Shown here piece by piece: positions 14,378-34,382 of a stretch of DNA of 56,121 bases. Source of the DNA: a virus (lineage: Duplodnaviria; Caudoviricetes); IMG/VR virus record IMGVR_UViG_3300046328_000525, positions 1-56,121 of that record. The stretch is one strand, 5' to 3'. The notes under the pieces are model-generated. The model was not told where the DNA came from. It searched no databases and was given only the letters and a program-made list of their open reading frames with translations. How positions within the stretch are numbered: position 1 is the stretch's first letter; each line of letters opens with the position of its first letter. The position numbers were made by a program, and so were the translations under genes.

Positions 14378-14521
14378 GTTGAGTGGCAGGTGTATAGACT
14401 GACTCCCGACGGGGACAACTGGAGGCCAACGAGCTTATGTAAAGCCTCATATATCAGATTAGTAAGTTAGTTTGCTCGTAGACTTATTAATCAGCCCTAC
14501 TGCAACATAGAAGTTGTCCCA
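14378..14521 (+). ncRNA. putative structured RNA in tRNA cluster
   Basis: GGGACAACT/AGTTGTCCC closing stem; GATTAGTAAGTT/GACTTATTAATC; GAGGC/GCCTC. Confidence 0.55.
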
Positions 14522-14558
14522 TTAAATTGGCGTTGAACTTCTTACAGGATAGGGATTT

Positions 14559-14629
14559 AGGGTCTAAGTGTTACGGAAGCACTACCGTCTCCAAAGCGGT
14601 AAGCCTAGGTTCGACTCCTAGAGACTCTG
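14559..14629 (+). tRNA. tRNA-Trp(CCA)
   Basis: AGGGTCT/AGACTCT; ACCGT-CTCCAAA-GCGGT. Confidence 0.88.
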
Positions 14630-14785
14630 CGGGTAACATTTGTATTGCAGACTATAGTTTAACTAGCTATTAAACTGAACGTCGACTGCTTACGCAAATT
14701 GCAGGGGCAACTAGGAGTCTACTGCACGATCTCGTCGGGGGATTCGGTTAATGTCCTTACAGTGTGGAATCTATAAACTGACCCG
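14630..14785 (+). ncRNA. putative multibranch RNA in tRNA cluster
   Basis: CGGGT/ACCCG ends; AGTTTAA/TTAAACT, TGCAG/CTGCA and further hairpins. Confidence 0.5.
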
Positions 14786-14792
14786 ACATAAT

Positions 14793-14875
14793 GGAAGTAT
14801 GGCAGAGTGGTCGAATGCAACGGTTTGCTAAATCGTAGATCGAAAGATCCATAGGTTCGAATCCTATTACTTCCG
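14793..14875 (+). tRNA. tRNA-Ser(GCU)
   Basis: GGAAGTA/TACTTCC; ACGGT-TTGCTAA-ATCGT; long arm; G73. Confidence 0.92.
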
Positions 14876-14879
14876 CTTT

Positions 14880-14959
14880 CCGTCATATGTTCCAAGGTGG
14901 GACAGGGGACTGTAAATCCCCCGCTGATAGCATGCTTGGTTCGATTCCAAGATGACGGA
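14880..14959 (+). tRNA. tRNA-Tyr(GUA) with C1:G72
   Basis: CCGTCAT/ATGACGG-A; GGGGA-CTGTAAA-TCCCC; long variable arm. Confidence 0.85.
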
Positions 14960-14964
14960 CTCGT

Positions 14965-15038
14965 TCTCTCTTCGTCCAACGGTAGGACTCCTGATTTTGG
15001 CTCAGGCAATCTTGGTTCGAATCCAGGGGAGAGAGCCA
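14965..15038 (+). tRNA. tRNA-Gln(UUG)
   Basis: CCTGA-TTTTGGC-TCAGG; encoded CCA. Confidence 0.9.
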
Positions 15039-15814
15039 TATCCTATCTTTTGATAGTATGTGTAGATGTATTCGTTTAGTTTATCTTTTGTGATTGAAGG
15101 AACTTTTAATTGCGGTAAATTAAATTTAATAAAGTTGCTCCATGAATCATAAAAGTCTATTCCATATCTTCCTATATGTGCTGCAATTATTACGTCCCAG
15201 CAACAGCATTCGGTTTCTGGAACTCCCTCGTGTGGTCTCTTAAATATTGTTCCAGCAGCTTTAAGGTGGTGTGTTAAAGGAACTATGCTTTGTGCAAATA
15301 GCTGCTCGATCCCATAAAACCAAACATTAGTGCAGTCAGGTACATTCTGATTAAATGAACGAATAAAAGAGTTGATATAGTCTTTATGTATAAACTGACT
15401 GTTTAAATCATATGCGTTATGATCTAGGTATGCAAAGTCAAAATGGTGGGAGGACTCAAAAGACTTTGGATCATCATGAATGATAGTCATATTATCAGGG
15501 AGGGCATTATTGGATAGAAATAGATTTATTATATCTAGATCAGACTCAACTACAGTTACAGTAGATACATTATCCTTAGACGCTATCCATAATGGCATGT
15601 ATCCTAGACCAAGCTTATTTAATAATACATCTCCGTAAGCTAGATCGTAAGCTGAATATTGTTGCTTTAAAGAATTATTGGTAAAGAAATTTACCCCATC
15701 TATGATTTTATCATTACTGATTAAATCAACCATAAAGTTATTTGTTTTAATTGACGCTGAATTTAATTCAGAATCTGGTATAAATATTGCTGGAACCGTT
15801 GACAAGTTGAACAT
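15002..15814 (-). CDS. class I SAM-dependent methyltransferase-like protein
   Basis: GDVL..LGLG, VTVVE.D.DII, IIHDD, FDFAYLD. Confidence 0.7.
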   Translation of the reverse strand: MFNLSTVPAIFIPDSELNSASIKTNNFMVDLISNDKIIDGVNFFTNNSLKQQYSAYDLAYGDVLLNKLGLGYMPLWIASKDNVSTVTVVESDLDIINLFLSNNALPDNMTIIHDDPKSFESSHHFDFAYLDHNAYDLNSQFIHKDYINSFIRSFNQNVPDCTNVWFYGIEQLFAQSIVPLTHHLKAAGTIFKRPHEGVPETECCCWDVIIAAHIGRYGIDFYDSWSNFIKFNLPQLKVPSITKDKLNEYIYTYYQKIGYGSLPWIRTKIA

Positions 15815-15862
15815 AATATACTATTATATCACTATTGATTGACTAAAAGAAAAGGGTTTAAA

Positions 15863-16564
15863 TTGAAAATTGATGTGCTTGATAAAGGATATGTTAGATT
15901 AGTTGATACTCTAGGTAGCGATTTATCTATTGCCAATGCTGCAAGAGTGTCTTATGATAAAGAGTCAGACGATATGTCTGAAAAGGACGCTAAGTTAATT
16001 AAATTTTTATGGGATGAAAAGCACACCTCCCCATTTAGACATGCAGCAATGACATTTGAAGTTTATGCACCTTTGGTGGTCGCTAGACAGTGGTGGAAGT
16101 ATGCTGTATCTTCTACCCATGTTGATGATCAAAATGGCTGGAATGAGTCTTCTAGGCGCTATATCACAGAGAATGAAGAGTTTTATATCCCAAAGGGATC
16201 AGAATGGCGCTCAAAGCCAGAAAATAGTAAGCAAGGCTCTGGCCCAGTATTAGATTCTGATGTTGGCGGATACTTTACAAATAAGTTGTTTGACACAGTA
16301 GAAGCAGGTAATAAGCTTTACCATGAAGCAATGGAGGCAGGAATCGCACCAGAGCAAGCAAGATTATTCCTTCCAGCATACGGAATGTATGTTCGTTGGC
16401 GGTGGACAGTAAGCCTTCAAGGGGTACTTACATTCTTGGATCAGAGACTAGAACATGATGCTCAAAAAGAAATTCAAGAGTATGCACAAGCGGTAAGAGA
16501 TTTAACTAAACAATCATTCCCCTATACATATAAGGTTGCCTTAGATAAGGATAATAATGATTGA
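15863..16564 (+). CDS. thyX: flavin-dependent thymidylate synthase
   Basis: AARVSY, HTSPFRH, ARQW, NESSRRY, PEQAR, HDAQ.EI. Confidence 0.95.
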   Translation: MKIDVLDKGYVRLVDTLGSDLSIANAARVSYDKESDDMSEKDAKLIKFLWDEKHTSPFRHAAMTFEVYAPLVVARQWWKYAVSSTHVDDQNGWNESSRRYITENEEFYIPKGSEWRSKPENSKQGSGPVLDSDVGGYFTNKLFDTVEAGNKLYHEAMEAGIAPEQARLFLPAYGMYVRWRWTVSLQGVLTFLDQRLEHDAQKEIQEYAQAVRDLTKQSFPYTYKVALDKDNND

Positions 16565-17003
16565 TAATGAGCCTAGCCTTAAAGAAAGTATTTTATCTTT
16601 ATACGCAGAAGGTAAGTCGTACAGAGAAATTGTCGACATTTTAGGATGTTCTAAATCTACTGTATCTTATTATTGTGGTAAGGGCCAAAAAGAAAAAACA
16701 AAGAATCGGCAAAAGCAATCAAGACATCGTAATATTGCATTTATACGTGAATATAAGCAAGGTAAGCGTTGTACAGATTGTAGAGAAGATTACCCTTACT
16801 GGATGTTAGAGTTTGATCACTTGCCTGGATATGAAAAGCTATTTACAATTGGCGGGAGAAGGCCAAGAGATTTTACTATAGAGCAGATTACTGAAGAGAT
16901 ATCTAAATGTGAAATAGTATGCTCTAATTGTCATAGGAATCGTACATACTGGAGACAAAATAAAAATGGCGAGTATGCAGACACAGAAAACTATTATGAA
17001 TAA
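16557..17003 (+). CDS. HTH plus HNH endonuclease
   Basis: SYREI...GCSKSTV; CTDC...EFDH...KC.IVC.NCH. Confidence 0.85.
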   Translation: MIDNEPSLKESILSLYAEGKSYREIVDILGCSKSTVSYYCGKGQKEKTKNRQKQSRHRNIAFIREYKQGKRCTDCREDYPYWMLEFDHLPGYEKLFTIGGRRPRDFTIEQITEEISKCEIVCSNCHRNRTYWRQNKNGEYADTENYYE

Positions 17004-18873
17004 TGAATATAACCATGAATGAACTTATTATGATCAAGCAGGCTGTATCTACAGTAGCACTTGAAAATGAATGGGATGATGCAAAACAGCAAGAATTATT
17101 TAATGGGGCAGTCTCTGAAATAATTAAATCTAGAACTAGAGTAAGTAAAAAGAAAAGGCATAGGCAATGATTCATTGGATCTCAGGATTTGTAGGCGGAG
17201 TACTATTTGTGGCGGTAGCCCTATGGTGGATATTAGGTTCAGATGATAATTAAACTATTATGGATTGGCTGCTCGTTAATTGTATTTAAGAATGTATTTA
17301 AATCTTTCATTAAAGAAGAATTAGATACTTGGGATGAATTAGATACCGCTACATTTATTATGCTAGGTGCTGTTTCTCTTCTAATTTCTATGTGGGGTCC
17401 CCTTGTAATTATCGGCTATATTCTATATAATGTATTAGAAGGAATTGTACAGGCTATTAATGAAAGGTATAAGAATGACACACGATGAATTGCTAGCAAA
17501 GATAGATAAGCCATATTTCTTTACTGAAATGATAACTGAATCTAAAATAGAAATAGATAAAAAAATTGCAGCCCTTCGTGCAGTAGTGGAATTGCATAAG
17601 CCTAGAAAAGAATCTATCTCGGGAGATTGTAATGAGTGTTTAAATTACTTTGATTCAGCGGAGTATCCTTGCCCAACTATTCAGGCTATTGAGAAGGAGT
17701 TAGAGTAATGGATAGATCAGATCTTTATACTCCGCCTAAAACACATAATAGTGGAGCGGAAACTTGGTGGGCTCAGGTTGATTTTGTAATTAATTATATA
17801 CAAGAAGATATTGCTAAGAAAATTGACCGTTGGCATATGGCTGGATGTATGGCGGGAACTAAATGCGATCAAGGTCGCTGTGATTGTGAAGAAATGATTA
17901 AGATTGCGAGAGGCAAAGATGAGTAAAGATAGGCGAGATATTATTGGCTATAAGTATAAGGATGATGAGCAAGAACTTCGTGAGAAGATTGCTCAAGAAA
18001 TTCTTGAGTGGGCACAAAAGTATCATGATAATCCAATAGTTGAAAACTGTGTTCGTATTGCGAGGGGACAATGATTGCAATTAATGGACCAATGCAAGGT
18101 AAATTCTATAATACCTCAGATATAACTAAGACAGTTATTGATCATATAAGGACTGAGTATGCTATATTTGAACTTACTTATTACCGTACCCACAATGGAT
18201 GGGCATTTCATTCATGGAAAAATCTGTTTAGTTTGAGGGGGATTTAATGACTAGCGAAGAAAAGTTTGATAAAGAGTTCGACTTTGAAAGATATAAGCAA
18301 TTAAAGAATATTGTGGCGGAACTAGGTAAGCAGGATAAAGAACTATTAGAAAGACTGGCAGATGATTGATTGGTTAGTTAATCGTATATTTAGCTGGAAG
18401 CCATTGTATGAGGCGGTTACAACAGAAGTTCATATGTACGATATGATTAAAGAAAGCCTAAAAGATACTACACCTGGGTCTTTACATTGGAATGATGGTG
18501 ATGGCTGGCGGTCATGGACATATAGTTCAGAGCGGAACAAATATTACTTTAATGATATTCCAACAGAATCCCTAGGAGAAGCAATGAGATATACATTAGA
18601 GTCTCATGGCCCTGAATTTGATATGGATGAAGTCTGGTAATGGCTCGGAATAAATACAAAAGAAGATACAGCCGTAAATCCCTTGAAGAAGAGAAGGCTC
18701 TGGCTATAAAAGAAGCTGATCGAATTAGACGGAAGATAGAGCAGATTAATAATAACTCTACTAATCATATATCTGATGAAGAGTCAGCAAGACAGGCCCA
18801 AGCCTTAAATGATCTTAGGCCATTAAAGTCACATAAAGTATCTACATATAAACGTAAAATTAAACACAAATAG
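17003..18873 (+). CDS. run of small coupled hypothetical genes (17003-17170, 17243-17488, 17475-17708, 17708-17926, 17919-18074, 18247-18369, 18362-18640, 18640-18873)
   Basis: overlapping start/stop codons; no recognised domains. Confidence 0.6.
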
Positions 18874-18937
18874 GTCGCAATTAGTGCGGCAAAAAGTGAA
18901 AAAGTTCGGCGGTAGAGACATCCTGTCAGTACCTGAC

Positions 18938-19516
18938 TTAAATTGTGTAAGTTTGCTCTTCTGCTAATATGTCATGAAATGCTGCTAATATATTAACTCT
19001 TGTACCTTTAGTTACTTTGCGTACTCCATGTCTTGTGCACCATCCTGGGAATAATACTACGCTACCCTTTTTAGGTGTAAATACAACTCCTTGATCTTCA
19101 AAAGCAAATTGCCCACCCTCGTAATCATCATTAAGGAATGCACTCAAGATATAGCTTCTTCTTGTTTGATCATATTCTCCTGCTGAATTTGGATCCTCGT
19201 CAGCATGGTCATGGAGCATGGCTCCTTCAAACATTAGATTAAAGTGTGCTCTATTAAATGTTAGATTACCTACAATATCAAAGTTATCCTTGAAGTAGTG
19301 GAAGGCATGCTTCATAGCCTCAAAGATACGCTGGTCATCAAAGCCGTTATCTCTTGATCGATCAATGAGATCATCAGAGCCTAACGGGTAGAATCCGTAG
19401 AATTCACGGGTATCAGACTGATAGTTATCTAAGGCATACTGGCAAAGAAAGTCTGCTTCCTCTGGCGTAAAGAAATCTTCAATTACTATAAATCCGCTAT
19501 TCTCATGTATGCTCAT
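18938..19516 (-). CDS. 2OG-Fe(II) oxygenase (P4H-like)
   Basis: HAD, FLNDDYEGG, HGV..V..G.R. Confidence 0.9.
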   Translation of the reverse strand: MSIHENSGFIVIEDFFTPEEADFLCQYALDNYQSDTREFYGFYPLGSDDLIDRSRDNGFDDQRIFEAMKHAFHYFKDNFDIVGNLTFNRAHFNLMFEGAMLHDHADEDPNSAGEYDQTRRSYILSAFLNDDYEGGQFAFEDQGVVFTPKKGSVVLFPGWCTRHGVRKVTKGTRVNILAAFHDILAEEQTYTI

Positions 19517-19684
19517 GTCCTTAGTCTACTAAATGTAGTTGCCTAAATCAAATGGCTAATGATATACTTAATCTATGAAAGCATGGGAAGATGGCAATTG
19601 TCAGATAGAGTCAATTAAGAGCATAGATGATGCCATGGATCCCGAAGCGGGAACAATAATGGCAATAGCCTTTGGAAGTAACTA

Positions 19685-19927
19685 ATGGCATATAGTAGAT
19701 TCTGGGATTCTGATATATATATCTATCCTAGCGTACTGGGAGATATCTGTTGCTGTGCATGCTTCCTATATGGCAAATCAATTAATATTGAAGATGACAT
19801 ATCTTTAGCTAATCATATTAAAGAACATATTGATGCATGTCATGATGTGCCTAAAGGTCTACTTGAGACTATTTTATCTGATCCAAATAGATACAGATTT
19901 GAGGCGGGAATGTCAGAAGATGTATAA
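19685..19927 (+). CDS. Cys/His-rich hypothetical protein
   Basis: MAYSRF.DSDIYIY; CCCAC; H...H....H. Confidence 0.65.
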   Translation: MAYSRFWDSDIYIYPSVLGDICCCACFLYGKSINIEDDISLANHIKEHIDACHDVPKGLLETILSDPNRYRFEAGMSEDV

Positions 19928-19975
19928 TAGTCTATGTAGTAACAATTACTACCTAACTAGATAAAGAGATTAATT

Positions 19976-20182
19976 ATGACAATGTGTGATGGATGTTCAA
20001 TATCCAAGAATAGAGATGCCTGGAGTCAATATCCAGATATGTTAGATTTATGCAAGATGTGCCACTCATTCCAAGAATCTATATATAAGACAATAGAAGA
20101 TCAAAAAAAGATTATGGGCTCAGCTTTGGCTAAAGTAGATAGCAAAGCTAAGAAATTAGCCAAGAAGAGAGCTATATCCTAG
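19976..20182 (+). CDS. CxxC...CxxC hypothetical protein
   Basis: CDGC and CKMC. Confidence 0.6.
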   Translation: MTMCDGCSISKNRDAWSQYPDMLDLCKMCHSFQESIYKTIEDQKKIMGSALAKVDSKAKKLAKKRAIS

Positions 20183-20645: not shown

Positions 20646-20678
20646 AAAAAGATCCACACACCGTGTGGCATGTGGATC
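20646..20678 (-). terminator. terminator ending the minus-strand array
   Basis: GATCCACA/TGTGGATC stem followed by T5 on minus strand. Confidence 0.7.
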
Positions 20679-20743
20679 AATTTGAGGAGTAATACTTAGA
20701 TATGAAATAGATCTTTAGATCATTAATCTAATCTGTTCGTTCC

Positions 20744-21013
20744 TTAGTAATCATATGATTCATTTTGTTCTATTACTTCCGCCAAGACATTTGCTAGAAT
20801 GAGACCAGTTGAGGTAATATCATGTTCCGCCTCCGTTTGGAATCGATTTGCTTGGTATTTGATAATCCAAGTAATTAGTTCCATTAGTTTATCTTGTGTA
20901 TATAGAGGTTGTTCATTTACAATTAGATTAGCAAAGATTCCTGGATGAAACCAATGATTATCTAGAGCCTTCATTAGTGCTTCTACTGCTTTTTGTTCAT
21001 CTGTCTTCTTCAT
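20744..21013 (-). CDS. hypothetical protein
   Basis: TTGACT-N17-TATAAT upstream. Confidence 0.7.
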   Translation of the reverse strand: MKKTDEQKAVEALMKALDNHWFHPGIFANLIVNEQPLYTQDKLMELITWIIKYQANRFQTEAEHDITSTGLILANVLAEVIEQNESYDY

Positions 21014-21101
21014 TCCGCCTCCGCCTGTTAGTCAATCTTGGATTATATCAATAATGTGAGAGGGAGTCAAGACTTCCCGACCTGACCCCCTCCCAACCCT
21101 A

Positions 21102-21251
21102 TTACTTGGCCTTCTTGACTGGAGTTGGATCTGTGAAGGTTACGCCCTTTGTGAGAGCTTCCTGGATAGCTGCCTTAGCAGCTCCTGAGAAACGACCACG
21201 TACTCCAACTGTAATGCCCTGTGCCTTGAGATATTCACGCTTTGTTGTCAT
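21102..21251 (-). CDS. Lsr2 DNA-binding-domain-like mini protein (49 aa)
   Basis: REYLKAQGITVGVRGRFS resembles Lsr2 REWA..NG..V..RGRI; GAAAGG RBS. Confidence 0.7.
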   Translation of the reverse strand: MTTKREYLKAQGITVGVRGRFSGAAKAAIQEALTKGVTFTDPTPVKKAK

Positions 21252-21369
21252 TTGTTTTATCCTTTCGAGATAAGTTATTTGTATATTAATTATATAAGAT
21301 ATTGCCGATTTGGTCAATACCTTTTTCAGGCAATTATTAAGTTTTTGCCGTAAGGGGAAAATTTGGCCC

Positions 21370-22554
21370 TTACGAATCCTCACCCATTCTATCTTTAATT
21401 AATTTAGCGATCATGTTATGTGCCTCGATGTTCTCTGTCTCGGACCCACCCCACAGGAGTTCCTGGGCCTTGCTGAGTACCTCGTTGGTGTATGCGTCTG
21501 TCGTTGTCATTAGTCTTCCTCTCCTATGAACTCGTTTCTAATTAACCAATCGGTTACGTGCTCTGACATTGCTTCTGTACCATATGCCAGGGTCCAGCCT
21601 TCCGTGTCTGCTGTCTCCCAGAATTTATCAAATACGGGAGTTAGATTATCTCCCTCGTACTGTGATTGAATTTGGTCCCATGTCCATAGCCAAACCAGGG
21701 ACGGAAATACTGGCATTAAATCTAATTCTACAATCATAGAATCAAGACTGTCACGCACTGCGTCTTTAAGTATGTTATCAATCATTCTTTGCTCCAATCG
21801 CAAATGATAGTTGGTATGTTAAATCATATAATGAAACTAAGGTATCTAGAATGCCTTCACATCTTGTGCGTTCCATTGAATCCATTGCTTCTTCTGATTC
21901 ATCTTCAATTGCTTGTGCCTCCGCTAATTCTTGCTCAGCAATTAGCATTAGATTCTTTAGTTCTCCATGCATTATATCTAATCCATTAACACCTGCGTCA
22001 ATTAGACGCTGGAGGTGGGGCTCGATATTATAATCTGGACTCATTACAACTCCTCTGTATCATTGATGTGTAATTCATAACCTTTTCTTCCCAATGCTTC
22101 TAGAGCCAAGAATTCGGCTGTTGCCATGTCAATTGCTTCTACTCTGATAGAGCCGTGGATTTCATATGTATTCATTAGTTCCCTTTCGTTTTGAGGAGTA
22201 TATCACGAGCCACTGACAAAAGGTGGCGGGTTGCAGAAAGTTCTCCAGTATTCATAATATCCTCTATCTCCAATTGACGATACTCATCTGAATCAAAGTC
22301 ACCTTCATATGTATTAAAGATATCCTGAAACTTATCTGCATCTTGTAATAGACTAATTTCATGAAGCTCTAAATATGCGATCATTTCTTCCATTATTCTG
22401 CCTCCCAATAAGTTGATATTAAATCCATTGCTTGATGAATATTACAATCACAATCTCCGCCGTTCATATTTTCCATAAAGTCAATATGAGAGAAGTGGTC
22501 ATCATAGATTTTCTGAACTAAAGATTTTACAGTTAAATCGTAGTCTGTCTTCAT
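21370..22554 (-). CDS. run of small acidic early-type genes (21370-21510, 21510-21785, 21778-22044, 22044-22175, 22175-22393, 22393-22554)
   Basis: stop/start-coupled ORFs. Confidence 0.65.
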
Positions 22555-23231
22555 GCTTCTACCTCCGTTGATTTAGATTCTGATTCTACACCATGGGTCT
22601 GACAATTTGCTCTGTCCTCATCTGTTGGCTCTCCATGCCCACACTTAGGACACATATCGAACTCACATGACTCACAGTACGGTGGCTCACCTAATTCTTC
22701 ATAACTGCATTCCCAGCACTTCCAGTTATATTCAGATGAAGATAACTCTTTGCCATTAGCAAACTCTGTTGAACCGCCCCAACCTGTTTCTTCCATATAT
22801 TCATTTGTAATCAAGACGGAAGGGAACTGACGGGACAACTCAATGAATACTGGATTAGGAGTACCCCATGCTGTATCAAAGTTATATACAAGAACATGGT
22901 TCTCAGCATTTGGCTCATCATGAACTAATTCAGGACTATTAGCATCCCACTTAACACCCCAATTACGATTATTCCAAGAATACCAGTCATTACCTGAATA
23001 TGGTGAATCTGATTTGTAATCAGGTTGCTTCGGATATGCTTCCATATCTGTTGGTTTAATTACATTCCAAAAAGAAAACGGGGAATCAACAGGAACATCC
23101 TTAACAGTATAAGCCAAATCACCATTAGATTGAACAGGCATAACATATGGCTTAGCGACTAACTCTTTAATTTGATTAACTAATTCAGGCTTACCTTCAA
23201 TAGTAACTGAATTTGATACCCAATTTGGCAT
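22551..23231 (-). CDS. DUF1281/YubB ferredoxin-like protein with C-terminal Cys cluster
   Basis: MPNW..N, WY.W...NWG.KW, FDTAW..P; ACGAAAGG RBS. Confidence 0.8.
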   Translation of the reverse strand: MPNWVSNSVTIEGKPELVNQIKELVAKPYVMPVQSNGDLAYTVKDVPVDSPFSFWNVIKPTDMEAYPKQPDYKSDSPYSGNDWYSWNNRNWGVKWDANSPELVHDEPNAENHVLVYNFDTAWGTPNPVFIELSRQFPSVLITNEYMEETGWGGSTEFANGKELSSSEYNWKCWECSYEELGEPPYCESCEFDMCPKCGHGEPTDEDRANCQTHGVESESKSTEVEA

Positions 23232-23520
23232 TTCATATCCTTTCGTTGATATAAGAGAATTATACATTGGACCACCGACAAATGGAATAGTTTGGTCCTG
23301 TGATTCGGACCACACCATTCAGAATTGATCAAAACTTCAGGCGATTTGCTATTGACAACGTAAAAGAAATACTATACCCTCAGTCTTTTGGGGGCATTTT
23401 ATGATCATTGTCAAGTCCTATTAATAAGGCTGCTAGAGTATCACCAACGAAAGTAAAAGAACTCTGCTTTATTTAACCCCTGGCCCAATGGACTGAGTAG
23501 AGGCACCTTTTTATTTTAAA

Positions 23521-23916
23521 TTAACTTAACACTTTGGAATACTTATTTACAAATTCCTTTAGTGTCATTGTGAAGACTGGTTCGTCCAACATTCCACGGA
23601 CCTTTGTGTCTTCATCCCACGAGCCTTCTTCATGAAGAGACATGGTGCCTGTCCGCCAATCAATAACAGGAATCTTGTGCTCGTTATCTAGGATTGTATT
23701 AACTGAAAGGCCCCAACCTGTTAGGCTGGTCCATTCATCTCCAATTAAATTAGAGATAACAATACGTGTAGCATATGACTCATCTGTCCAACGTGGCTCT
23801 GCAAGTTCTACAGCTTGTGCAAGCTTTGACAACATCTCAAAACCAGCCCAGTGCCCGTACAAAACAATTGTATCGCCATTGCTTTGCTTGAATCCGAAGT
23901 TTGCTCTGTCTCCCAT
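23521..23916 (-). CDS. hypothetical protein
   Basis: MGDRAN..., LYGHWAG, RW.D.SY..RI. Confidence 0.75.
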   Translation of the reverse strand: MGDRANFGFKQSNGDTIVLYGHWAGFEMLSKLAQAVELAEPRWTDESYATRIVISNLIGDEWTSLTGWGLSVNTILDNEHKIPVIDWRTGTMSLHEEGSWDEDTKVRGMLDEPVFTMTLKEFVNKYSKVLS

Positions 23917-24495
23917 TAGATATCCGCCTCTACTAGTTGTTCTTCTTTTGCTGGGTGCAATTCTACCACTTCATAGGCAACCTTGGCAAGCGCCTCGGCA
24001 TATTTATTTTTATGGTGTCCGCAGAAAAATAGTTCTCCATTAATTAATTTAATCTGCCATAAAGCTTGAGCGGAGTCACCGCATTTATCGCAGGCGATCC
24101 ATTTTGTTAGGTCTTCACTCACGAATAGAAGTTCCTCTCTCAATCTTATCTGCAATTTCATCCATGATTTGTGCTTCTGATACTTCTTCTACTTCTGATG
24201 CCCATTCACGAATATTTTCAATGATGACTTCTCGTGCAAACGTTACGCCATCTTCAAAGCCTGATTTATAGTCTGACATTATTCCTCCTTCCTAGTAACC
24301 TGTCGGCTCAAACTCTGATGTATAAGATTCAATTAAATTAAACTTATCACGTAGGTTTGATACTTTCTCAATGCTACCAGTTCCAATGTTGAAAGTCAAT
24401 GGTCCAATCATTTCTGGGTCAAGACCAATTGTTGATGCCTCCCAGATAGCCCCTTTCAGGGCCATCTGAGACGGAGCGGTGAGTTCAAAGTACAT
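23916..24495 (-). CDS. three small genes (23916-24122 CxxC...FCGHH zinc-binding; 24115-24279; 24292-24495)
   Basis: coupled ORFs; AGGAGG before 24279. Confidence 0.65.
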
Positions 24496-25055
24496 TAGTA
24501 TGGCTCCTCAACTGAATAGAGTTCATAGTTGTCGATACAAACATTGCCGTTGTTAATATCTACATAGACATCTTCAAGAGCCTGGGTTAAATCAAAGTCT
24601 GCAACCTCGCTTCGTGGAATATCCATTGAACCAGAGAAATGGATTACACCTTCAAACTGAATAGTCTTAACTGGGTTGTAATCAATAATCTCACAAACCG
24701 CTTCAAGAATATCTGATGCCTCTGATTCGTTCTCATAAGCATCATTAATCAAACTAATTAACTGAGAACCGATGCGACCATTTTCTGCCTTCCAGTAATC
24801 GCAATTCTGATGCTTCTTTAGCTCTTCCATTAGTTCTGTAATCTTTGACTGCATGAACTGTGCTGTTGTGTCCATTGTTTCCTCTTTCGTTGTTGGAGTA
24901 GGTATTGTAGCATCGACCACTGACAAAAGTGTCATTGTATTAAAACAAGATGGGCAAAGCTTTTGGTCAATTGTTCTAGTTGATAGGATAGTCATTTCAA
25001 ATAGACCATCGCATGTGTTGCATACATATGTGTGCTTGTTCCAGTTCGTTGTCAT
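24495..25055 (-). CDS. zinc-ribbon plus acidic domain protein, with internal restart at 24875
   Basis: CNTC and CPSC; internal promoter and RBS before MDTT. Confidence 0.7.
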   Translation of the reverse strand: MTTNWNKHTYVCNTCDGLFEMTILSTRTIDQKLCPSCFNTMTLLSVVDATIPTPTTKEETMDTTAQFMQSKITELMEELKKHQNCDYWKAENGRIGSQLISLINDAYENESEASDILEAVCEIIDYNPVKTIQFEGVIHFSGSMDIPRSEVADFDLTQALEDVYVDINNGNVCIDNYELYSVEEPY

Positions 25056-25223
25056 GTGGCATATTATAGCGGACCCCACCGACAAATGGTGAAATTTCGG
25101 GCGATTTTAAATGTGATACGTAACACATATTTTTATCCCTCAATATATGGGGGCTCTGATCAATTTTGTCAAGTCGACACGCCGTAGCGTGAGCAGTTTC
25201 ACATCATGCTCAGGATGATTTAT

Positions 25224-26237
25224 TTAGCCCGCCAGAGCCATTACCTGCTTTACGATTTTATTCTTCTCAGCGGTAACAACAGGGTCGAATCCTGATGCAC
25301 CCGCCATGAGTGTTTCACCATTGCCACGAGCAGAGCGGAAATAATCAATGCGTTCAGTAAGAGCATTAACTACACCCCAAGCGGTACCCTTGATGTTGGT
25401 CTGAGTTGGTGAGTTGAAATAAATGTCATCAATTAAGGTGACTTTATTTTCCCACTTTGTGAGAGCCTGCTTTGACTTATCTTCTTCAGGCTTTGGATAC
25501 ATTGCACGAATAATTTCGTGGAACTTCTTATCTGAAACTTCAGTTTCAAATAGTGCCTTAGCCTGCTTTTCAAACTCATCAAAGTAACCAAGAGTAAGCC
25601 CAAGAGTCTCACGAGCAATTTGAATTTTACCCTCAGCGGTCTGAGTGTGACGGATTTTAAAAGATTGCTTTGCATTACGCATTGCAAGATTTAAAGTGTT
25701 TTGGCATACAACACGAACAGGTGTAACAGCAGCCTGCACCGCAACAGAACCGTCGTGTGATGTCCATACGATTAGATAGAGTTTTGTCTCATCGTTTGCA
25801 CCCTGAGGGTCTAGAACCATTGTGCGAGGAATTTCAACAGTACCGAACACAACTTTGCCATTACGCAAAGAGCCAGCGGATTCCCAGCGACATGCAGGGT
25901 CTGCATCGTGAATTGCATCGGCAAATTGAAATAGTTCCTCATTCTGAACTACCTTATAACGCTTACCGACATTGGCAAGAACATCAGTTCCACCATTGAA
26001 AGGGTTGGTACGCAATACGAGATGAGAATTTGAAACATCATTCCAAGATTCATCTACGTGATCGGTTAGCGGCGAGAGTCGAACATTCCAATTCGAGAGT
26101 TTAGCTTCATCGAGCATGAGTTGAGTTGAAACTTCCTCATCTTGTGAGAAGATGCGGTTTGCAAGATTATGCCATGCAGGTGCGCCACGCAATGCAAATG
26201 CAACTTCGCCATTAACAGTTTCGAGATTATGAGCCAT
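25224..26237 (-). CDS. DUF932-family (phage/plasmid TIGR03299-like) protein
   Basis: MAHN..., PAWH.L, Y.VVQN, ESAGSL..G, SHDGS, TPVRVVCQNTL, IRHT, GTAWG..NA.TE. Confidence 0.9.
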   Translation of the reverse strand: MAHNLETVNGEVAFALRGAPAWHNLANRIFSQDEEVSTQLMLDEAKLSNWNVRLSPLTDHVDESWNDVSNSHLVLRTNPFNGGTDVLANVGKRYKVVQNEELFQFADAIHDADPACRWESAGSLRNGKVVFGTVEIPRTMVLDPQGANDETKLYLIVWTSHDGSVAVQAAVTPVRVVCQNTLNLAMRNAKQSFKIRHTQTAEGKIQIARETLGLTLGYFDEFEKQAKALFETEVSDKKFHEIIRAMYPKPEEDKSKQALTKWENKVTLIDDIYFNSPTQTNIKGTAWGVVNALTERIDYFRSARGNGETLMAGASGFDPVVTAEKNKIVKQVMALAG

Positions 26238-26457
26238 GATTTTCCTCTTTCGTTTGATTGATTAGGCAATTATAACAGGCGGGTCTGACAAATGATAGTC
26301 TAATTTGATTCCATCTCATAGACTGAGATGTGTGCAACATCACAATTTTCAGGGTGTTTTGGTGCTTGACTTAAATGGATCGAGGCCCCCGCAGTATTTG
26401 GGGGCATTTTTTAAAATTGTCAAGCGGGAAGTTTAAAGAGATTCCCAGCTCTTGCTA

Positions 26458-26709
26458 TTACGATAAGATTAACTGATTACCGATTTTAGCTTTGACATTC
26501 TGTACTGTTTCCATTGGGATAAACATTGCGGTTGTCTTCTTCTTTTTTAGCGAATCAAAAACATACGCATGAACGGTTGAGCTGAACTTACTGATGTTGC
26601 TGAATACATATTCGGTGAGCAGTTCTTTGTCTACACCTTGATCCGAATACATGGTGACATCATTTGATTTGATGTCATCATAAATTTCAATGCGATAACG
26701 ATTACGCAT
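26458..26709 (-). CDS. hypothetical protein
   Basis: AAAGGA RBS. Confidence 0.7.
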   Translation of the reverse strand: MRNRYRIEIYDDIKSNDVTMYSDQGVDKELLTEYVFSNISKFSSTVHAYVFDSLKKKKTTAMFIPMETVQNVKAKIGNQLILS

Positions 26710-26778
26710 TTTGTTTCCTTTGTTAGTAGGGACACCCGAAGGTGTGAGCAGTTTGGCGACTTACTCAGGTCGTTGGAT

Positions 26779-27177
26779 TTATAGGTACTGTGCGATTGAC
26801 TTGAAAGTTGAAGTTGAAACGAAATCCTCATCTGTCATCTTCAAGATGCGAATACCATTTTCAATCTCTTGGATTTCGTACTGACCCAATTCGTTTTCTA
26901 GTCGCTCAATCTCTGGCTCATCAGGAAGTTTAACTCCGTTTGCAATCTCATAATTTACTGAGAGAGAGTTACGCCATGAGTGCTTGCTGATTGAGTCAAT
27001 AGTCAATGAGTCCTTGAACTCCTTGAGAATTGTCTTAAAATACTTATCTTGTGCTACCTTGTAAGCATCACGCTTCTTTTCGTTTGATGCTGCAACCTTT
27101 ACATTATTAGTAATCTTATCTTCAAGAGCCTTGATTACTTTAACTGTTGCTACCTTAACTGTTACTGCTCTAGCCAT
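26779..27177 (-). CDS. hypothetical protein
   Basis: promoter plus ACGAAAGAGG RBS. Confidence 0.75.
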   Translation of the reverse strand: MARAVTVKVATVKVIKALEDKITNNVKVAASNEKKRDAYKVAQDKYFKTILKEFKDSLTIDSISKHSWRNSLSVNYEIANGVKLPDEPEIERLENELGQYEIQEIENGIRILKMTDEDFVSTSTFKSIAQYL

Positions 27178-27255
27178 TTTTTCCTCTTTCGTTGGTTGGT
27201 TTATTTGGTTAGTTGTATTATAGTGGAGGGGTCTGACAAACCCCTCCGCCCCATA

Positions 27256-30200
27256 CTATGAAAGTGATTCTGCTGAAACTGTTGTCCAGCGTTCTCCCTT
27301 TGGTGTATCTAATTTAACACGCACCGAGCCAGATGCGTTCTTTACAATTTCAGTAATTGTCCCTGTAACTCCAGATGAAAGAGTTGTGAATAGGTCGCCT
27401 ACTTCGTATGTCTTCTGATTTACTGTCATTTTGCTTCCGTTCTATTAGTTGTTGTTGTTACTGGAGTATTATAGCAGGGGGGTCTGACAAGTGACAAGCC
27501 CCCCTGCATAATTATTTATTCAGCGAGAGAAACAAACGCCCAGCCTCCGCCGTCGTTGGCTTGCTTTACGAACTCAAGAGTTTTGAGTGCGTGAATTGTT
27601 GTTTCCTGAACCATGGCTGTGAGTTGCTCCTCTGTAAGAGAAATAAGAGCAGGCAGAAGATTTGCAGGCAACTTGTCAATGTTGATTTCTGCAAGGAAAG
27701 TAACTGTGTGTGGAACTGTGATGATGTTTGACATGTCATGCCTTTCGTTGTTGGTATGAGAGTATTATAGCTTATAGGTCTGACACAAACCTATAAAACC
27801 TCGGCGTGTCGGAATTATTTTATGTGATAAAGCTCACAAATTCCAGGCGTATTTTTGACTTGACGTAATTGATCTTATGCCCCCGCACCTAGGTACGGGA
27901 CCTGCCGCCTTTTGTCAAGGCGACACGCCGTCTAACTGGATTTTATCCATAAATAAATTGAGAATCCTATCGGTGAGACTAGGGCAAAAATTAGCCCTAG
28001 CCCCAACACGGCCCCTATAAAGTCATACATTAATCTAACACGCTCCAATACTCCATGCCTAGTTCATCGGCAACATATCGAGGGACATCGCTCCACACTG
28101 TTTCGTTGTAGAAATATTTAGGGCGGGCACCCGTGAGGGTTACTTTAAAAAATATGTCATCGTTTTGATCTTGATGAATAGTTACCTTTTCATCAGTGAA
28201 GACATTAAACCATTTAGCCGAACTTACTGGAGGATGCTTAGCCATTATTCATTCACCCATTCTAAATCAGACATGCCATCAACGCATGCACACGGATTAA
28301 TTTCTAGCCAGCCGTCATTATCAAACACGAACGCAACATCTCCGCAATCGTTGCAGAGGCTTGCTATTACATCCTTTAGCATTATTTAACCGCCTTCATA
28401 TTGTAGTTGCTTGCTTCATGGAATCGGGTTACATCAAATCGAGGATTATCTTTTGCAAACATCTCCGCAAAATCTGTTACAACTTTTGTAAATAATGCGG
28501 GATGAGTTTTGTTGCTCATATAATTAAGAATTTCTGCAGTTGCTACATAATCTTTTCGAGTCATCATTATTTAATTACTACCCTTCCATCTCTGTAAAAT
28601 ACTTTTGTGTAACACTTTCCTGTTGGTGTGTAAAGATTAACTGTTGAGTATTCATTAGCTAATCCCCAATCCTTGAACATAAAGAAATTTTCCCATGCCG
28701 CATATTCCATTTCGTACGTGGCTGACCAATGAGGACTTTCCTCATAGTCATATTGGCAAGTTAGTTTGTACATAGTTTTCCTTTCGTTGTTTGAATAATT
28801 GTATTATAGCGGAGCCCACCGACAATTAGTCGGAGGACACGCAGACGGTTGCCCAGAAATCTTCATGAAGAAATTTTCCGTCATATGTAGGGCGGACACG
28901 GATACGATAAGCCTCAGAGCCTACATAGAATAAATCAGGGGCATGGTTAGCCTCTTGAATAATGCCCGCAAGATTACGGGACTTTGAAGAATAGAACTTG
29001 CCAACTAGTAGTTGGTCAATAGAGTAATTTAGTGCTGACATGGTGTCTGCCTTTCGTTTGTTTGTATATGGATATTATAGCGTAGGGGACTGACATTTAT
29101 GACATTACTAGCCAGTAAATCCAAATAATGAGACGCTCAGCCTATGTGATATAGACCACAAAAAATGTCCAAATTGTCTGTCAAATCGACACGCCGCATT
29201 TTCAGGGAATTTTATGGTCATACTTAAATATGACTGGTCCCCCATGCTTTTTGTGGGCGGATCGACTTTTGTCAAGGCGACACGCCGTTAGGCTAGTGTG
29301 ATTCTTGCCACATCTCCCGCATATCTGCGATTACCTCACGCCCTACTATGCGCCCCATATATAGGGCGGGGATAGCGATAGACATCTGCACAATAGTAGT
29401 TAGGAATCTAGTCATTTACTTTACTCTCTTTCGTTTGATTACTTTATAGATTATAGCGGACACTACCGACAAGGCGAGTAGTTCCCATGAGATAGCGATA
29501 TAGCATAGGGCTGTATCTAACATGAACCCATACGATCCTATTTCTAGTGTAAAGAATCCCTCGCTCATGCGTTTATCTCCATTTCTGTTTTGTGTGCGTA
29601 TCCATTGCTCGCACATTCGTAGCAATACTTTTCGGTTGGTAGTCCTAAGAGGAAAGCATCTACGCCACTATATACCAATTCGGTAGAGTCGCATATATCT
29701 ACATTACATTTCATAGAAAGAAATACCCCGCTATCGCTACTAGTACCAATACAATCGCATTAACATCTGAGGTGCTCATTAGTTATCTCCAAACATTGCT
29801 AGAACCATATCAACTTGCTCATCTGATAGGTGTTCGATTTCAATAGCATCTGCAAAACCGAATGGGTCTGCATCTTCTGACTCTACATCTTCAATGTATG
29901 CATCTTGCACATCATCTTGAATAGTAGCGTACTTATCGAATGTGTTTGAATCGAATCCGTATGTGTATGTCATTTTGTTTCTTCTTTCGTTAGTAGTTCA
30001 ATAAGATAAAGGTAGCGGATAGGTCTGACAATTGCAAGCCCATAGGGTGTGGTGTTGGTCACACCTAGTACATCTGTGTAGTTAGTACTATGCGACGCTC
30101 ATTGCGTGTCGCTATGTTTTTCTTAGCGATAGGGAAAGGTAGTTTATAGAGCGATACATGTGTATCGGTTTCGATAGTTACTACACCCTCAAGAAACTTA

Positions 30201-30417
30201 CCATTCTTCATGGTGATTTCTGTCCAATTCTTGCTAGTCATTATTTGACCTCCTTAGCATTGAGAGCCTTTTGAATCTCACGAACATTTTGTAACCATGG
30301 TGTATTGGCTACGATAGCCTCATGGCGTAGGCGGTTACGCTCTTGCTGTGCTTGAGCGAAAGCCTTGAAATATTCATGAGTGTTGCGGTCTCTATCCGCT
30401 TGTGTTAGTTGAGTCAT
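27256..30417 (-). CDS. array of small early-type genes (27256-27429, 27516-27734, 28030-28245, 28245-28382, 28382-28567, 28567-28773, 28826-29041, 29416-29568, 29779-29973, 30065-30241, 30241-30417)
   Basis: many are preceded by the repeated promoter and an ACGAAAG-type leader. Confidence 0.7.
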
Positions 30418-30682
30418 TTTGTGACCCCTTTCTTTTGTTTGTTTAACTTTATATATAAAGCTTAACACGGGGGTCTGACAAATATCAAGTCGCAAAACGG
30501 ACATTAGAGACATTTCCAAAAGAAAGTGTGTGATATAGGTAACATTGACCAGTCATATGGGCGGACTATCGGACAAAACGGACATTGTTATATGTGTGTA
30601 TCATACAAATAAAAATCCTATTAACATTTTGTCAAAATCGAAATAGCAGTCGACTAGAATATATAGGCGGTATACTTAGAAT

Positions 30683-31495
30683 ATGAATACCAAGCCAATA
30701 GAGTACTTTAATATGCAGGACCTGGAAACAAACATCAAATACTTTGGAGATAAGTTCAAAGAGGACGGAATCCTAGTTTTCAGAAATGCTAATTTAAACG
30801 AAGCAGATCAAAGGCGGGTACAAGAAATTTTCGGGGACTACTTTGGAATCTTTCCAAATAGCCAAGAGAGCTTTGATCAACTATACATAGAAAACCATAC
30901 TGCACTACTGGAAAATAACGTATCTGGTGATCAATTGATGCTCGGTTGGCATATGGAACATTTGTATATGTCTAATCCAATAGTGGTTGGTTTCTGGAAC
31001 ATGTACAAATTTTTGGCGGATTCAAATACTGGTAAAACATTCTTTTACGATTCTAGGACGCTATATAAGCTAATTCCAGATGACTGGAAAGACTTCTTGG
31101 CGTCATGTGTAATCGATGCTTCTCTAAATGTAAATGTCTTGGACGATACTAATCACACTTCAGCAATTTCCAGACATTGGCTGACAAATGACTATATGAT
31201 ACGTATTCCTCTACATGACATAGGTGATGATCCTAATCCTTTAGTTTACTTTGCGGGACTTCCCGCCTCTAATGAACAGAAGGATCAATATGAAGAAATT
31301 ACAAAAGGAATTAAGGAGCTTCTACTCGGCGACACTTTTCGCACTTTTGAGCATAAGTGGAAACAGGGCGATTTAGTAATAGTTGATATACATTCTATGC
31401 TACATGCTGTATCAGGAGGATTTGATCCAGCTGATAGAGAATTTAGAGGAATGTGGTCTTACGCAGAAAAATTCATAAAGCCTATAGGAGTATAA
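30683..31495 (+). CDS. TauD/TfdA-family dioxygenase
   Basis: GILVFR, WHME, G.T.F.D, H.W..GD.VI.D....H. Confidence 0.85.
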   Translation: MNTKPIEYFNMQDLETNIKYFGDKFKEDGILVFRNANLNEADQRRVQEIFGDYFGIFPNSQESFDQLYIENHTALLENNVSGDQLMLGWHMEHLYMSNPIVVGFWNMYKFLADSNTGKTFFYDSRTLYKLIPDDWKDFLASCVIDASLNVNVLDDTNHTSAISRHWLTNDYMIRIPLHDIGDDPNPLVYFAGLPASNEQKDQYEEITKGIKELLLGDTFRTFEHKWKQGDLVIVDIHSMLHAVSGGFDPADREFRGMWSYAEKFIKPIGV

Positions 31496-31502
31496 TTATA
31501 CT

Positions 31503-32309
31503 ATGATAAATACAGAGCCGATAGAATTTACAAGCATTGAAGAGATTGCAGCAAATTCCAATTTTTACTTTGATAGGTTTAAAAAGGACGGCATTCTAGT
31601 TTTTAGAAATGCCAATCTTACAATAGAGCAGCAAGAAGAGCTGCAGCTAAAAATGGCTGATGCCTTTAACTACTATCCCAACATACACGATCTAACTGGG
31701 CATTATGTGGAAGACCATTCAATGTCAATACCAAAAAATGCGGGTCCAGATGAGATAATGTTGGATTGGCATATTGAGCATGTATATCTAGAGAATCCAA
31801 TCGTTCTAGGAATATGGAACATGCATGTGTTTAACACAGACCCTGAAAATGGCAAAACATATTTTTATGATTCTAGAATATTATATGACAAACTTCCAGT
31901 TGAGTGGAAAGAGTTTTTGTCTTCATGCATTATTGACGGAGCTACAAATAGCGATCCACTAGGTAGCGTTAAATATACAAAGCCTATAATGCCACATTGG
32001 TTAGATAAAAGACCAACCATAAGAATTGCTGTAGGAAAACAAGAAAGCAGTATCGATATACTTAAACGAGTAAATGATCGTCCACCTACAACTAAAGATC
32101 ATAGAATGTATTCTGAGATTACAGCTAAAATTAAAGAAATCTTAGATAACGATACTGATAACAGAATTGTTCACAGATGGCAAGTAGGGGATATAGTAAT
32201 TCCAGATATGTTTACTATGGTTCATTCTGTTACAGGTGGATTTAAAAAAGAAGATCGTGTATTTACTGGTATGTGGTCTTTCCCAGATAAATATATTCCA
32301 CGGTCTTGA
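31503..32309 (+). CDS. TauD/TfdA-family dioxygenase (tandem paralog)
   Basis: same motifs; WHIE. Confidence 0.85.
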   Translation: MINTEPIEFTSIEEIAANSNFYFDRFKKDGILVFRNANLTIEQQEELQLKMADAFNYYPNIHDLTGHYVEDHSMSIPKNAGPDEIMLDWHIEHVYLENPIVLGIWNMHVFNTDPENGKTYFYDSRILYDKLPVEWKEFLSSCIIDGATNSDPLGSVKYTKPIMPHWLDKRPTIRIAVGKQESSIDILKRVNDRPPTTKDHRMYSEITAKIKEILDNDTDNRIVHRWQVGDIVIPDMFTMVHSVTGGFKKEDRVFTGMWSFPDKYIPRS

Positions 32310-32746: not shown

Positions 32747-32821
32747 GGACCTATAGCTTAATCTGGTTAAAGCGCTTGTCTTATATACAAGTGAATCTCG
32801 GTTCAAATCCGAGTGGGTCTA
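32747..32821 (+). tRNA. tRNA-Ile(UAU)
   Basis: GGACCTA/TGGGTCT-A; CTTGT-CTTATAT-ACAAG; TTCAAAT. Confidence 0.88.
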
Positions 32822-33394
32822 CAATTTAAAATCATCTACATCTGAAAGTCTTAAATCAGAAAAAGACGGGAACTGTGAAATTAAATTCTCTCTTACGCAA
32901 TAGGCATTAAAATCACTAGAGAATTTAATCAATCCTCGATCAATATGCCAAGCGTAATCTGAGAGCATATCTGCAAAATACCGCATCTTCTCTGGATTAA
33001 TACTATATGCTTGAGTTCCTGAGCCATTAACATATCTGGACCAATATGAATTTATATCTTCTAGCTTTGGTGATAATGATCCTAAATAGAAGATATCAGC
33101 GTTTTCTGGTAATTCCCGCATCTTATCTCCAAATTTTTCACTAAACCCGTCGACAAATAGAGCATCATCTTCTAATATAAGTATATTTTGTCCTATATGT
33201 CCGTTTATTACGGCTAAATGACTTTTTAGACATGCCATATATGGCTCAATATGGAGCTCTTTAGCGTCGAATGCACTAAAGCGCTCATATTTTATATCTA
33301 ACTGCTTAAGTTGTGCATCTAATCGAGACATTCTATCTTGTCTCCGATCTAGATTTATGACTATAACTTTATCGAAGTACTCATTCACATGCAT
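32819..33394 (-). CDS. GT25-family glycosyltransferase
   Basis: VINLDRR.DR, RFSA.D, C..SH, ILEDDA. Confidence 0.9.
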   Translation of the reverse strand: MHVNEYFDKVIVINLDRRQDRMSRLDAQLKQLDIKYERFSAFDAKELHIEPYMACLKSHLAVINGHIGQNILILEDDALFVDGFSEKFGDKMRELPENADIFYLGSLSPKLEDINSYWSRYVNGSGTQAYSINPEKMRYFADMLSDYAWHIDRGLIKFSSDFNAYCVRENLISQFPSFSDLRLSDVDDFKL

Positions 33395-33890: not shown

Positions 33891-34382
33891 ATGTTATATC
33901 TAGAGCCATTTACTATTATGAATTTCCTTTCTACCGACGAACTTGAATATTTTGATGACGTAATAGCAGAACCAAATAAATACGGGTATGCATGGAAAGA
34001 CGGATCTTTAGTAGCAAAAAATGACCCTACTATAAAAAGCATACAAGAAAGACTTTATGATCTTTTTAAAGTTACAAACGGGTATGTTGATACTGGCTGG
34101 ATGATTCAAAAGGCAGCTGTTGGAGAAGGACTTATTTATCATTATGATGCGTATAGCCCTAAAGGTGCAGACATTCCTTCAACAACTTATGGAGTTGCAA
34201 TATATTTAAATGATAATTTTACTGGCGGGGAATTACATTATAAATTTACAGATGTAAAGATTAGACCAGTTCGTGGAATGCTTGCAGCACACCCTGGAAC
34301 AAAAGAATACACTCATGGCGTTTTAGATGTAACGCTTGGGAATAGATATGCAATAACAGCATTTATTCATAATTTAGATTAG
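33891..34382 (+). CDS. 2OG-Fe(II) oxygenase (P4H-like)
   Basis: HYD, YLND.F.GGE, HGV..V..G.RY. Confidence 0.9.
   Translation: MLYLEPFTIMNFLSTDELEYFDDVIAEPNKYGYAWKDGSLVAKNDPTIKSIQERLYDLFKVTNGYVDTGWMIQKAAVGEGLIYHYDAYSPKGADIPSTTYGVAIYLNDNFTGGELHYKFTDVKIRPVRGMLAAHPGTKEYTHGVLDVTLGNRYAITAFIHNLD

Follow-up and report, generated by a model that had tools for sequence, protein, structure and literature searches.

Promoter-like sites of PafBC type clustered in a small-gene module of freshwater actinophages

A promoter-like motif confined to one module

The virus record IMGVR_UViG_3300046328_000525 (Duplodnaviria; Caudoviricetes), analysed here over its whole length of 56,121 nt (the window), carries a leftward module of small genes in which 14 copies of the element TGTCRG-N10-TAnnnT are found. 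As judged by sequence, these sites constitute a promoter class with the exact architecture and the sub-variants of cellular promoters that depend on PafBC, a WYL-domain heterodimer of the DNA-damage response, and this class is module-specific and family-wide. The motif, its geometry, its conservation and its restriction to one module were observed directly, and no phage gene for a WYL protein or a sigma factor was found. Dependence of the phage promoters on the PafBC of the host is the best reading of these data, and one that we would hold with slightly better than even confidence.

A pattern scan of both strands of the window gave 16 matches. The number expected by chance, estimated from 100 dinucleotide shuffles, was 1.08 (standard deviation 1.05, maximum 4), with 16 reached in none of them, and a reversed-pattern control on the window gave 0 forward and 3 reverse matches. 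Of the 16 matches, 14 fall within 22197-30480 on the minus strand, each close 5' of a small gene. The remaining two (11043 and 50713, plus strand) are located within open reading frames (ORFs) and have poor -10 hexamers, and hence were taken as chance-level. A first-pass annotation of this DNA had described about 13 minus-strand promoters with an invariant 10-nt spacer and no canonical -35, and none outside the same 8.3 kb. The count proved to be 14, the two promoters cited as examples (25063-25084 and 26269-26290) are both exact, and the confinement to this region is right in substance, given that only the two plus-strand matches lie beyond it. The spacer is exactly 10 nt in all 14 sites, and allowing N9 or N11 added a single chance-like match in the region.

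The GTC of the upstream element is invariant in 14/14 window sites, being fixed by the search pattern. Thirteen of the sites end 22-42 nt 5' of an ATG having a AACGAAAGG-type ribosome site, and for the remaining one (25063) an in-frame ATG follows after 8 nt, at 25055, which may be a leaderless start. The site at 27468 has, by happenstance, a second TTGTCA at 18 nt.

Conservation in related phages

Using the DUF932 protein encoded in the module, 264 relatives were matched in IMG/VR, which makes phages of this kind common in lake metagenomes; the motif statistics are from the 80 relatives that were fetched (1.33 Mb). The scan in relatives, which had been suggested as a check, found the motif in 80/80 of these at 6-19 copies each; the gene strand has 1145 copies in total and the opposite strand 3, and the reversed control gave 9. 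The spacing is equally strict, the N10 form accounting for 1145 sites and each other spacing from N6 to N14 for at most 54. In the five relatives rated 96-100% complete, 14-18 copies are grouped within one stretch of 10-12 kb, and the rest of the sequence has 0-2 stray matches.

A frequency matrix calculated from 805 unique sites of the window and relatives has the consensus www-TGTC-A(85%)-G-(T/A)-S-S ... T(61%)G(77%)n-TAtaaT. The flanks that lie outside the fixed search pattern are also conserved (A/T before the element; T/A, S and S after it), and information at the -35 positions is ~0, as expected from the lack of a canonical -35 reported in the first-pass annotation. The element is followed by TGG in 343 and by ACC in 204 of the 805 sites, which defines the sub-variants TGTCGGTGG and TGTCAGACC, respectively. 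Inverted repeats of 8-9 bp surround TGTCAG in three window sites; a hairpin at TGTCAG was rejected as a general feature, stems of at least 8 bp being present in 28 of the 805 sites vs ~5 in re-paired controls.

A second scan with TGTCGGTGG-N7-TAGAAT retrieved the divergent contigs G408-G411 (39-92 kb), in which the loci reach up to 46% guanine plus cytosine (GC). Each of these has 10-16 clustered copies, yet few small proteins in common with the window. Retention of the motif cluster in such highly divergent relatives fits a conserved reader provided by the host. Together, the data confirm, at the level of sequence, a real and conserved promoter-like class. In G410 (C1:15244-15524) and G411 (C1:5069-5564), one motif copy at the cluster's upstream edge lies on the other strand, which suggests a divergent pair of PafBC-type promoters.

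Duplication of one promoter cassette within the module, with an accidental likeness to PafBC promoters, is very improbable as the origin of the array. The ribosome-site leader AACGAAAGG is indeed common to the sites along with the promoter, but the spacer sequences vary between sites while TGTCRG and the -10 are kept. Moreover, the sites are conserved across relatives of 36-46% GC with diverged genes, and their strand bias is 1145 vs 3.

Identity of the virus

The window is a complete IMG/VR record, estimated to represent 52% of the genome, with a GC content of 38% (range 34-41%), and its sequence is contained in freshwater metagenomes, with no RNA run among the data sets listed. The region matched no phage record by megablast, and a 626-aa protein of the window matched Streptomyces phages only. 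The complete relative G003 (110 kb) shares 36 and 39 of its 80 conserved ORFs of at least 100 aa with the Streptomyces phages Jay2Jay and Annadreamy, respectively (tblastn). TerL is 60%, the DNA polymerase (III) 56% and the ribonucleotide reductase (RNR) 65% identical to those of the Streptomyces phages, and the tape measure is shared too. These core genes and the synteny with Jay2Jay and Annadreamy point to a Stanwilliamsviridae-like placement. Judged by whiB and the ORFs shared with Streptomyces phages, the virus is an actinophage, and more precisely a freshwater virus of roughly 110 kb and 38% GC that is related to the Streptomyces Stanwilliamsviridae, and not a mycobacteriophage. The mycobacterial setting implied in the first-pass annotation is thus not upheld. 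Streptomyces has a GC content of ~72%, and members of the family run far below it (Jay2Jay 49.5%, Annadreamy 47.6%), so that the 38% GC of the phage says little on how GC-rich the host is. Isolated 'Candidatus Planktophila' phages were set aside as kin by description only, as they are 39 kb in size and encode a sigma-70 factor (PMC10202952).

Comparison with PafBC promoters and cellular genomes

In PMC8635444, the in vivo PafBC consensus is given as tGTCgg(N10)tA(N3)T, with its 5' part at -23 to -28 and without a -35. The same paper states that GTC is strictly conserved and read by PafB, and that PafBC inserts between SigA region 4 and the DNA without remodelling sigma region 4. The phage sites have TGTCRG at -28 to -23 with the invariant GTC, the N10 spacer, a SigA-type TAnnnT and no -35, and the match to the RecA-NDp/PafBC consensus recognised in the first-pass annotation is upheld for each of these elements. 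By sequence, therefore, they would qualify as PafBC promoters in every respect. They differ from known PafBC promoters in driving genes without known function, not DNA-repair genes, in being packed as 14-18 copies into ~10 kb, and in having mostly A at position 5 and commonly a TG extension of the -10.

The cellular actinobacterial genome G306, which has strong WhiB hits and two WYL hits, gave 13 pattern matches vs 0 for the control, and both sub-variants of the phage are represented among them (4 TGTCGGTGG and 4 TGTCAGACC). Its sites lie 5' of recA, of genes for SSB, DnaN, a ComM-like ChlI/Lon_C protein, UPF0102 and a LysM protein, and the genes for a Crp-like regulator, ribosomal protein S6 and a VWA protein are preceded by such sites as well. 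At four of the G306 sites, the distance to the start codon is 6-9 nt. In mycobacteria, the PafBC regulon classically includes recA and a LysM-domain division inhibitor. Two TGTCAGACC sites at G306:C168:6287-6330, placed back to back on opposite strands, look like a divergent promoter pair.

Among the genomes examined, TGTC-N12-TAnnnT was found closely 5' of recA in 6/18 that are WYL-positive vs 0/14 that are WYL-negative. Tandem WYL ORFs of 332 and 337 aa, encoded in one low-GC genome, gave matches to the chains of M. smegmatis in 7p5x and 9fnd (E ~1e-13). Three small, low-GC genomes with tandem WYL genes (G355, G333 and G027) have TGTCG[GC]-N10-TATwAT 5' of recA and orthologous TGTC[AG]C sites elsewhere in common, which suggests a lineage-specific variant of the -26 element.

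Activation by a host WYL protein that depends on the -26 region is also known for the SiwR-dependent promoter of M. smegmatis (PMC10693628), and shows that this is a wider actinobacterial design. However, SiwR reads a GGA triplet in a palindrome and serves a single operon (PMC10693628), whereas the phage element has the PafBC-type GTC.

Search for a phage-encoded reader

A WYL gene of the phage itself, one of the checks proposed at the outset, was not found in the window or the five near-complete relatives (0/6 records, no match up to E 1). No sigma70 region 2 was detected in the same six records, and the sole region-4-like match was an endonuclease with helix-turn-helix (HTH) and HNH motifs. 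A virion RNA polymerase was rejected, as the 2953-aa ORF of G003 matches the Jay2Jay tape measure. Integrase genes were found in 0/7 and 0/5 records, with no lysogeny module, and prophage induction was rejected on the lack of an integrase.

Thirteen ORFs of G003 are present in two other motif-bearing genomes and absent from Jay2Jay and Annadreamy, in a comparison of three genomes vs two from which small, fast-evolving proteins can escape. Nine of the 13 were scanned and no DNA-binding family was found above threshold, the MotA and AsiA families not being searched for; the only hint was a sub-threshold Zn_ribbon_8. For the 57-aa ORF at 27256-27429, no family was above threshold, and the sub-threshold hints were DUF7258 and ProQ_C, which are small beta-barrel families.

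These searches bear on an alternative that we regard as unlikely, though to be taken seriously, namely that an adaptor encoded by the phage or delivered with the virion reads TGTCRG and recruits the host RNA polymerase in the manner of T4 MotA/AsiA. The module would then be 'middle', and the switch would be the product of a few canonically promoted genes or an injected protein. Middle promoters of T4 consist of a box near -30 and a sigma-70 -10, without a -35. The phage sites resemble this layout (an A/T-rich stretch, a box near -30, a sigma-70 -10 and no -35), and in both cases an upstream box would replace the -35 in a class of phage promoters that works with the primary sigma factor of the host. 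The module also includes two canonical promoters with good ribosome sites (21317 and 21070). Since cultured relatives are without the motif, it could have come together with a phage gene, for which the 13 ORFs specific to the motif-bearing genomes relative to the two Streptomyces phages, including small proteins such as the 57-aa ORF, would be candidates. However, no phage-encoded activator was found, with no DNA-binding family above threshold in the nine ORFs scanned or the 57-aa ORF, and no WYL or sigma gene was found. The phage box equals a host regulon motif, so that a phage factor would have to converge on the PafBC motif of the host, its spacing and both sub-variants, and the first promoter of the module already bears the motif. 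PafBC has itself been compared with AsiA/MotA in PMC8635444.

Proposed mode of expression

If the host PafBC is the reader, as we infer, the 14 sites would be promoters of a host-takeover or early module of the phage and would fall in the '-26 element plus -10' class of Actinobacteria. The housekeeping RNA polymerase of the host (SigA) would read the TAnnnT -10, which is often TGn-extended, and the missing -35 contact would be replaced by PafBC bound to TGTCRG at -28 to -23 and bridging to sigma region 4 ('sigma adaptation'). Activation of PafBC occurs when single-stranded DNA (ssDNA) binds to its WYL domains (PMC11804915). As PafBC is constitutively present and activated in this way, the module would fire once ssDNA appears, either at or soon after DNA entry (from end processing or nicks) or in cells that are already damaged; DNA entry as the trigger is purely conjectural.

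A broader proposal, to which we give somewhat less than even credence, is that of a freshwater actinophage family without an early transcription factor of its own, in which the whole takeover module is under the ssDNA-activated PafBC of the host through sigma adaptation. Early expression would be licensed by ssDNA arising from infection or by prior ultraviolet damage in surface water, and the promoter array may also draw PafBC off the damage response of the host.

Several observations weigh against a dependence on PafBC. Streptomyces has PafBC-type recA promoters. Nevertheless, the seven cultured Streptomyces relatives lack the motif, with only 0-2 chance-level matches, and in Jay2Jay, the one cultured relative that was read, the upstream regions of the small genes have canonical TTGnnn-N17-TAGACT promoters; the family thus does not need a PafBC-type design. 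An inducible activator for all early expression looks risky for a lytic phage. Among cellular genomes, three of low GC use TGTCRC instead of TGTCRG, the WYL-positive G192, G375, G011 and G400 show no TGTCRG excess over control, and G010 shows only a slight excess (6 vs 3), which indicates that the detail of the motif varies by lineage. Finally, position -14 is G in 77% of the sites and position -15 is T in 61%, and an extended -10 can work without an upstream activator.

This last point leads to the possibility, which we consider quite improbable, that the promoters are self-sufficient extended -10 promoters and that TGTCRG is the operator of a late-shutoff repressor or forms a PafBC decoy array blunting the damage response. 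TGn precedes the -10 in most sites, the element is carried by 364 of 533 TGnTA[TC]AAT gene-strand sites, and the 14-18 copies per genome would be multiplied by replication. Orientation-specific intergenic sites are known for the repressors of Cluster A mycobacteriophages. However, a pure operator need not hold an invariant 10-nt phase to the -10, as is seen in 1145 sites, and the same element with the same spacing serves promoters of cellular damage genes. Unlike the Cluster A stoperators, the phage sites are restricted to a single module and keep a strict phase to the -10, and neither an integrase nor a lysogeny module was found.

Among the papers listed on PafBC with phage, on RecA-NDp and on sigma adaptation with phage, none described such phage promoters, in agreement with the remark in the first-pass annotation that none was known. 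PafBC and sigma adaptation have so far been known only as a cellular DNA-damage response. If host PafBC does serve the phage, the damage alarm of the host would itself be an entry point for viruses, in a natural contrast to T4, which must bring its own MotA and AsiA. Phage infection should then activate PafBC, and loss or change of pafBC would be a route to phage resistance; a connection of pafBC with mycobacteriophage resistance is reportedly made in a 2025 paper. With short and portable promoters and an established real-time transcription assay using purified PafBC (PMC11804915), the idea is directly testable.

The host

WYL genes are present in 343 of 401 sampled genomes of the phylum, a tally that includes 13 unpublished genomes. 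At least two WYL hits were obtained in 10 of the 11 small genomes that scored strongly for WhiB, a count that includes the unpublished G339 (WYL-positive) and G387 (WYL-negative) and becomes 9/9 without them, and one of 52 WYL-negative genomes tested has a strong WhiB hit. G306, G355, G333, G027, G010 and G011 carry no unpublished flag. A whiB-carrying phage most likely infects a WhiB-bearing host, and such hosts, on the evidence of these hits, would usually have a PafBC-like pair.

A host search of genome contigs with the AhpC-like gene of the window returned proteobacterial homologues and short, 37% GC phage-like contigs in a metagenome-assembled genome (MAG) of 70% GC, and hence no signal of a host. 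A DNA search of positions 1-20000 of the window against the 401 genomes revealed only tRNA and thioredoxin similarity, and the phage WhiB protein had no match at E 1e-9 in 42 genomes. Genome-wide motif counts in five low-GC genomes were not in excess over control.

Organisation of the module

Besides the 14 PafBC-type promoters, the module has a pair of canonical promoters towards its far end, and it is closed by a terminator (Table 1). Families recognised among its products are DUF932, DUF1281_C/Api92-like and DUF7455, and many other ORFs have no family match. No paper listed on plasmid leading regions contained the term DUF932, and a link to such regions is not proposed. A block of many small genes running opposite to most of the genome, with numerous promoters at short intervals, is the mark of a host-takeover module of the SPO1 type. 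The left-arm block of Jay2Jay (Stanwilliamsviridae) has the same make-up and is syntenic, with a DUF932 gene, and glycosyltransferase and RNR genes beyond. In G003, the equivalent block is the only long stretch opposed to the reading direction of the rest of the genome, and it matches the left-arm small-gene block of Jay2Jay in position. On account of this orientation and position, an early or host-takeover role is likely for the module, as far as gene content and synteny can tell. The Jay2Jay block differs in its canonical promoters, and the motif is absent from the seven cultured members of the family. A 'terminal repeat' of G003 is merely a 105-bp assembly overlap and says nothing on the physical ends of the genome.

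In the segment 24495-25084 (minus strand), the ORF with its start at 25055 contains the promoter at 24904, and two nested products of ~186 and ~126 aa are possible.

Table 1. Predicted promoters, selected genes and terminator of the leftward module, and the whiB marker gene, in the window.
Feature	Position	Strand	Context or basis
Whole leftward module, ~34 small genes	20651-30481 (about 20.3-30.5 kb)	-	ORF map, motif sites, promoter/terminator scan
Promoter 1, TGTCAGACCCCCGTGTTAAGCT, first of module	30459-30480	-	gene start 30417
Promoter 2, TGTCAGACCTATCCGCTACCTT	30009-30030	-	gene start 29973
Promoter 3, TGTCGGTAGTGTCCGCTATAAT	29450-29471	-	gene start 29415
Promoter 4, TGTCAGTCCCCTACGCTATAAT	29074-29095	-	gene start 29041
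Promoter 5, TGTCGGTGGGCTCCGCTATAAT	28803-28824	-	gene start 28773, then four abutting small ORFs
Promoter 6, TGTCAGACCTATAAGCTATAAT	27764-27785	-	gene start 27734; 8-bp inverted repeat across TGTCAG
Promoter 7, TGTCAGACCCCCCTGCTATAAT	27468-27489	-	5' of conserved 57-aa ORF 27256-27429
Promoter 8, TGTCAGACCCCTCCACTATAAT	27217-27238	-	gene start 27177 (132 aa)
Promoter 9, TGTCAGACCCGCCTGTTATAAT	26269-26290	-	5' of DUF932 gene 25224-26237
Promoter 10, TGTCGGTGGGGTCCGCTATAAT	25063-25084	-	in-frame ATG 25055, 8 nt past -10
Promoter 11, TGTCAGTGGTCGATGCTACAAT	24904-24925	-	within ORF starting 25055; in-frame ATG 24875 preceded by Shine-Dalgarno sequence
Promoter 12, TGTCGGTGGTCCAATGTATAAT	23259-23280	-	5' of DUF1281_C/Api92-like gene 22551-23231
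Promoter 13, TGTCAGACCCATGGTGTAGAAT	22583-22604	-	gene start 22554
Promoter 14, TGTCAGTGGCTCGTGATATACT	22197-22218	-	gene start 22175
Canonical sigma-70-type promoter, TTGACC-17-TATAAT	21289-21317	-	5' of ORF 21102-21251
Canonical sigma-70-type promoter, TTGACT-17-TATAAT with TG	21042-21070	-	5' of ORF 20744-21013
Intrinsic-terminator-like hairpin, 12-bp stem and T run, closing the module	20651-20678	-	terminator scan
DUF932 protein, 337 aa	25224-26237	-	52% identity to Jay2Jay gene 5 and kin
DUF7455 small protein	23916-24161	-	family match
57-aa protein, retained also in those motif-bearing relatives that are the most divergent	27256-27429	-	protein comparison
WhiB-like gene, marker of actinobacterial phages	1611-1922	+	family match

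Other features of the window

Nine tRNA genes (1219-1379, 14216-15038 and 32747-32822) fit a phage base composition far from that of the host, and an Rfam scan gave tRNAs only. A thioredoxin-like gene with WCGPC at 5690-6000 (plus strand) is 86-91% identical in DNA over ~45 nt to many actinobacterial genomes.

An AhpC/peroxiredoxin gene adjoins a CMD (AhpD-like) gene at 13013-14139 (plus strand), and its closest cellular homologues are proteobacterial. Copies of the AhpC-like gene that are 78-81% identical occur on short 32-37% GC contigs in unrelated MAGs, one of them of 70% GC, and these are probably mis-binned phage contigs.

Directly 3' of thyX, the segment 16557-17003 (plus strand) encodes a probable homing endonuclease of 148 aa, which combines an HTH at its N-terminus with an HNH-like motif at its C-terminus. 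The segments 9478-12082, 18938-19516, 30683-32309 and 33891-34382 code for five 2OG-Fe(II) oxygenase paralogues and for a neighbouring pair of TauD-family dioxygenases, an oxygenase gene set that is unusually large given that only half of a phage genome is present. The stretch 48253-52995 (plus strand) is occupied by seven ORFs of 198-246 aa that abut one another, and those at 49525-50184, 51591-52313 and 52300-52995 are paralogues with 31-36% identity.

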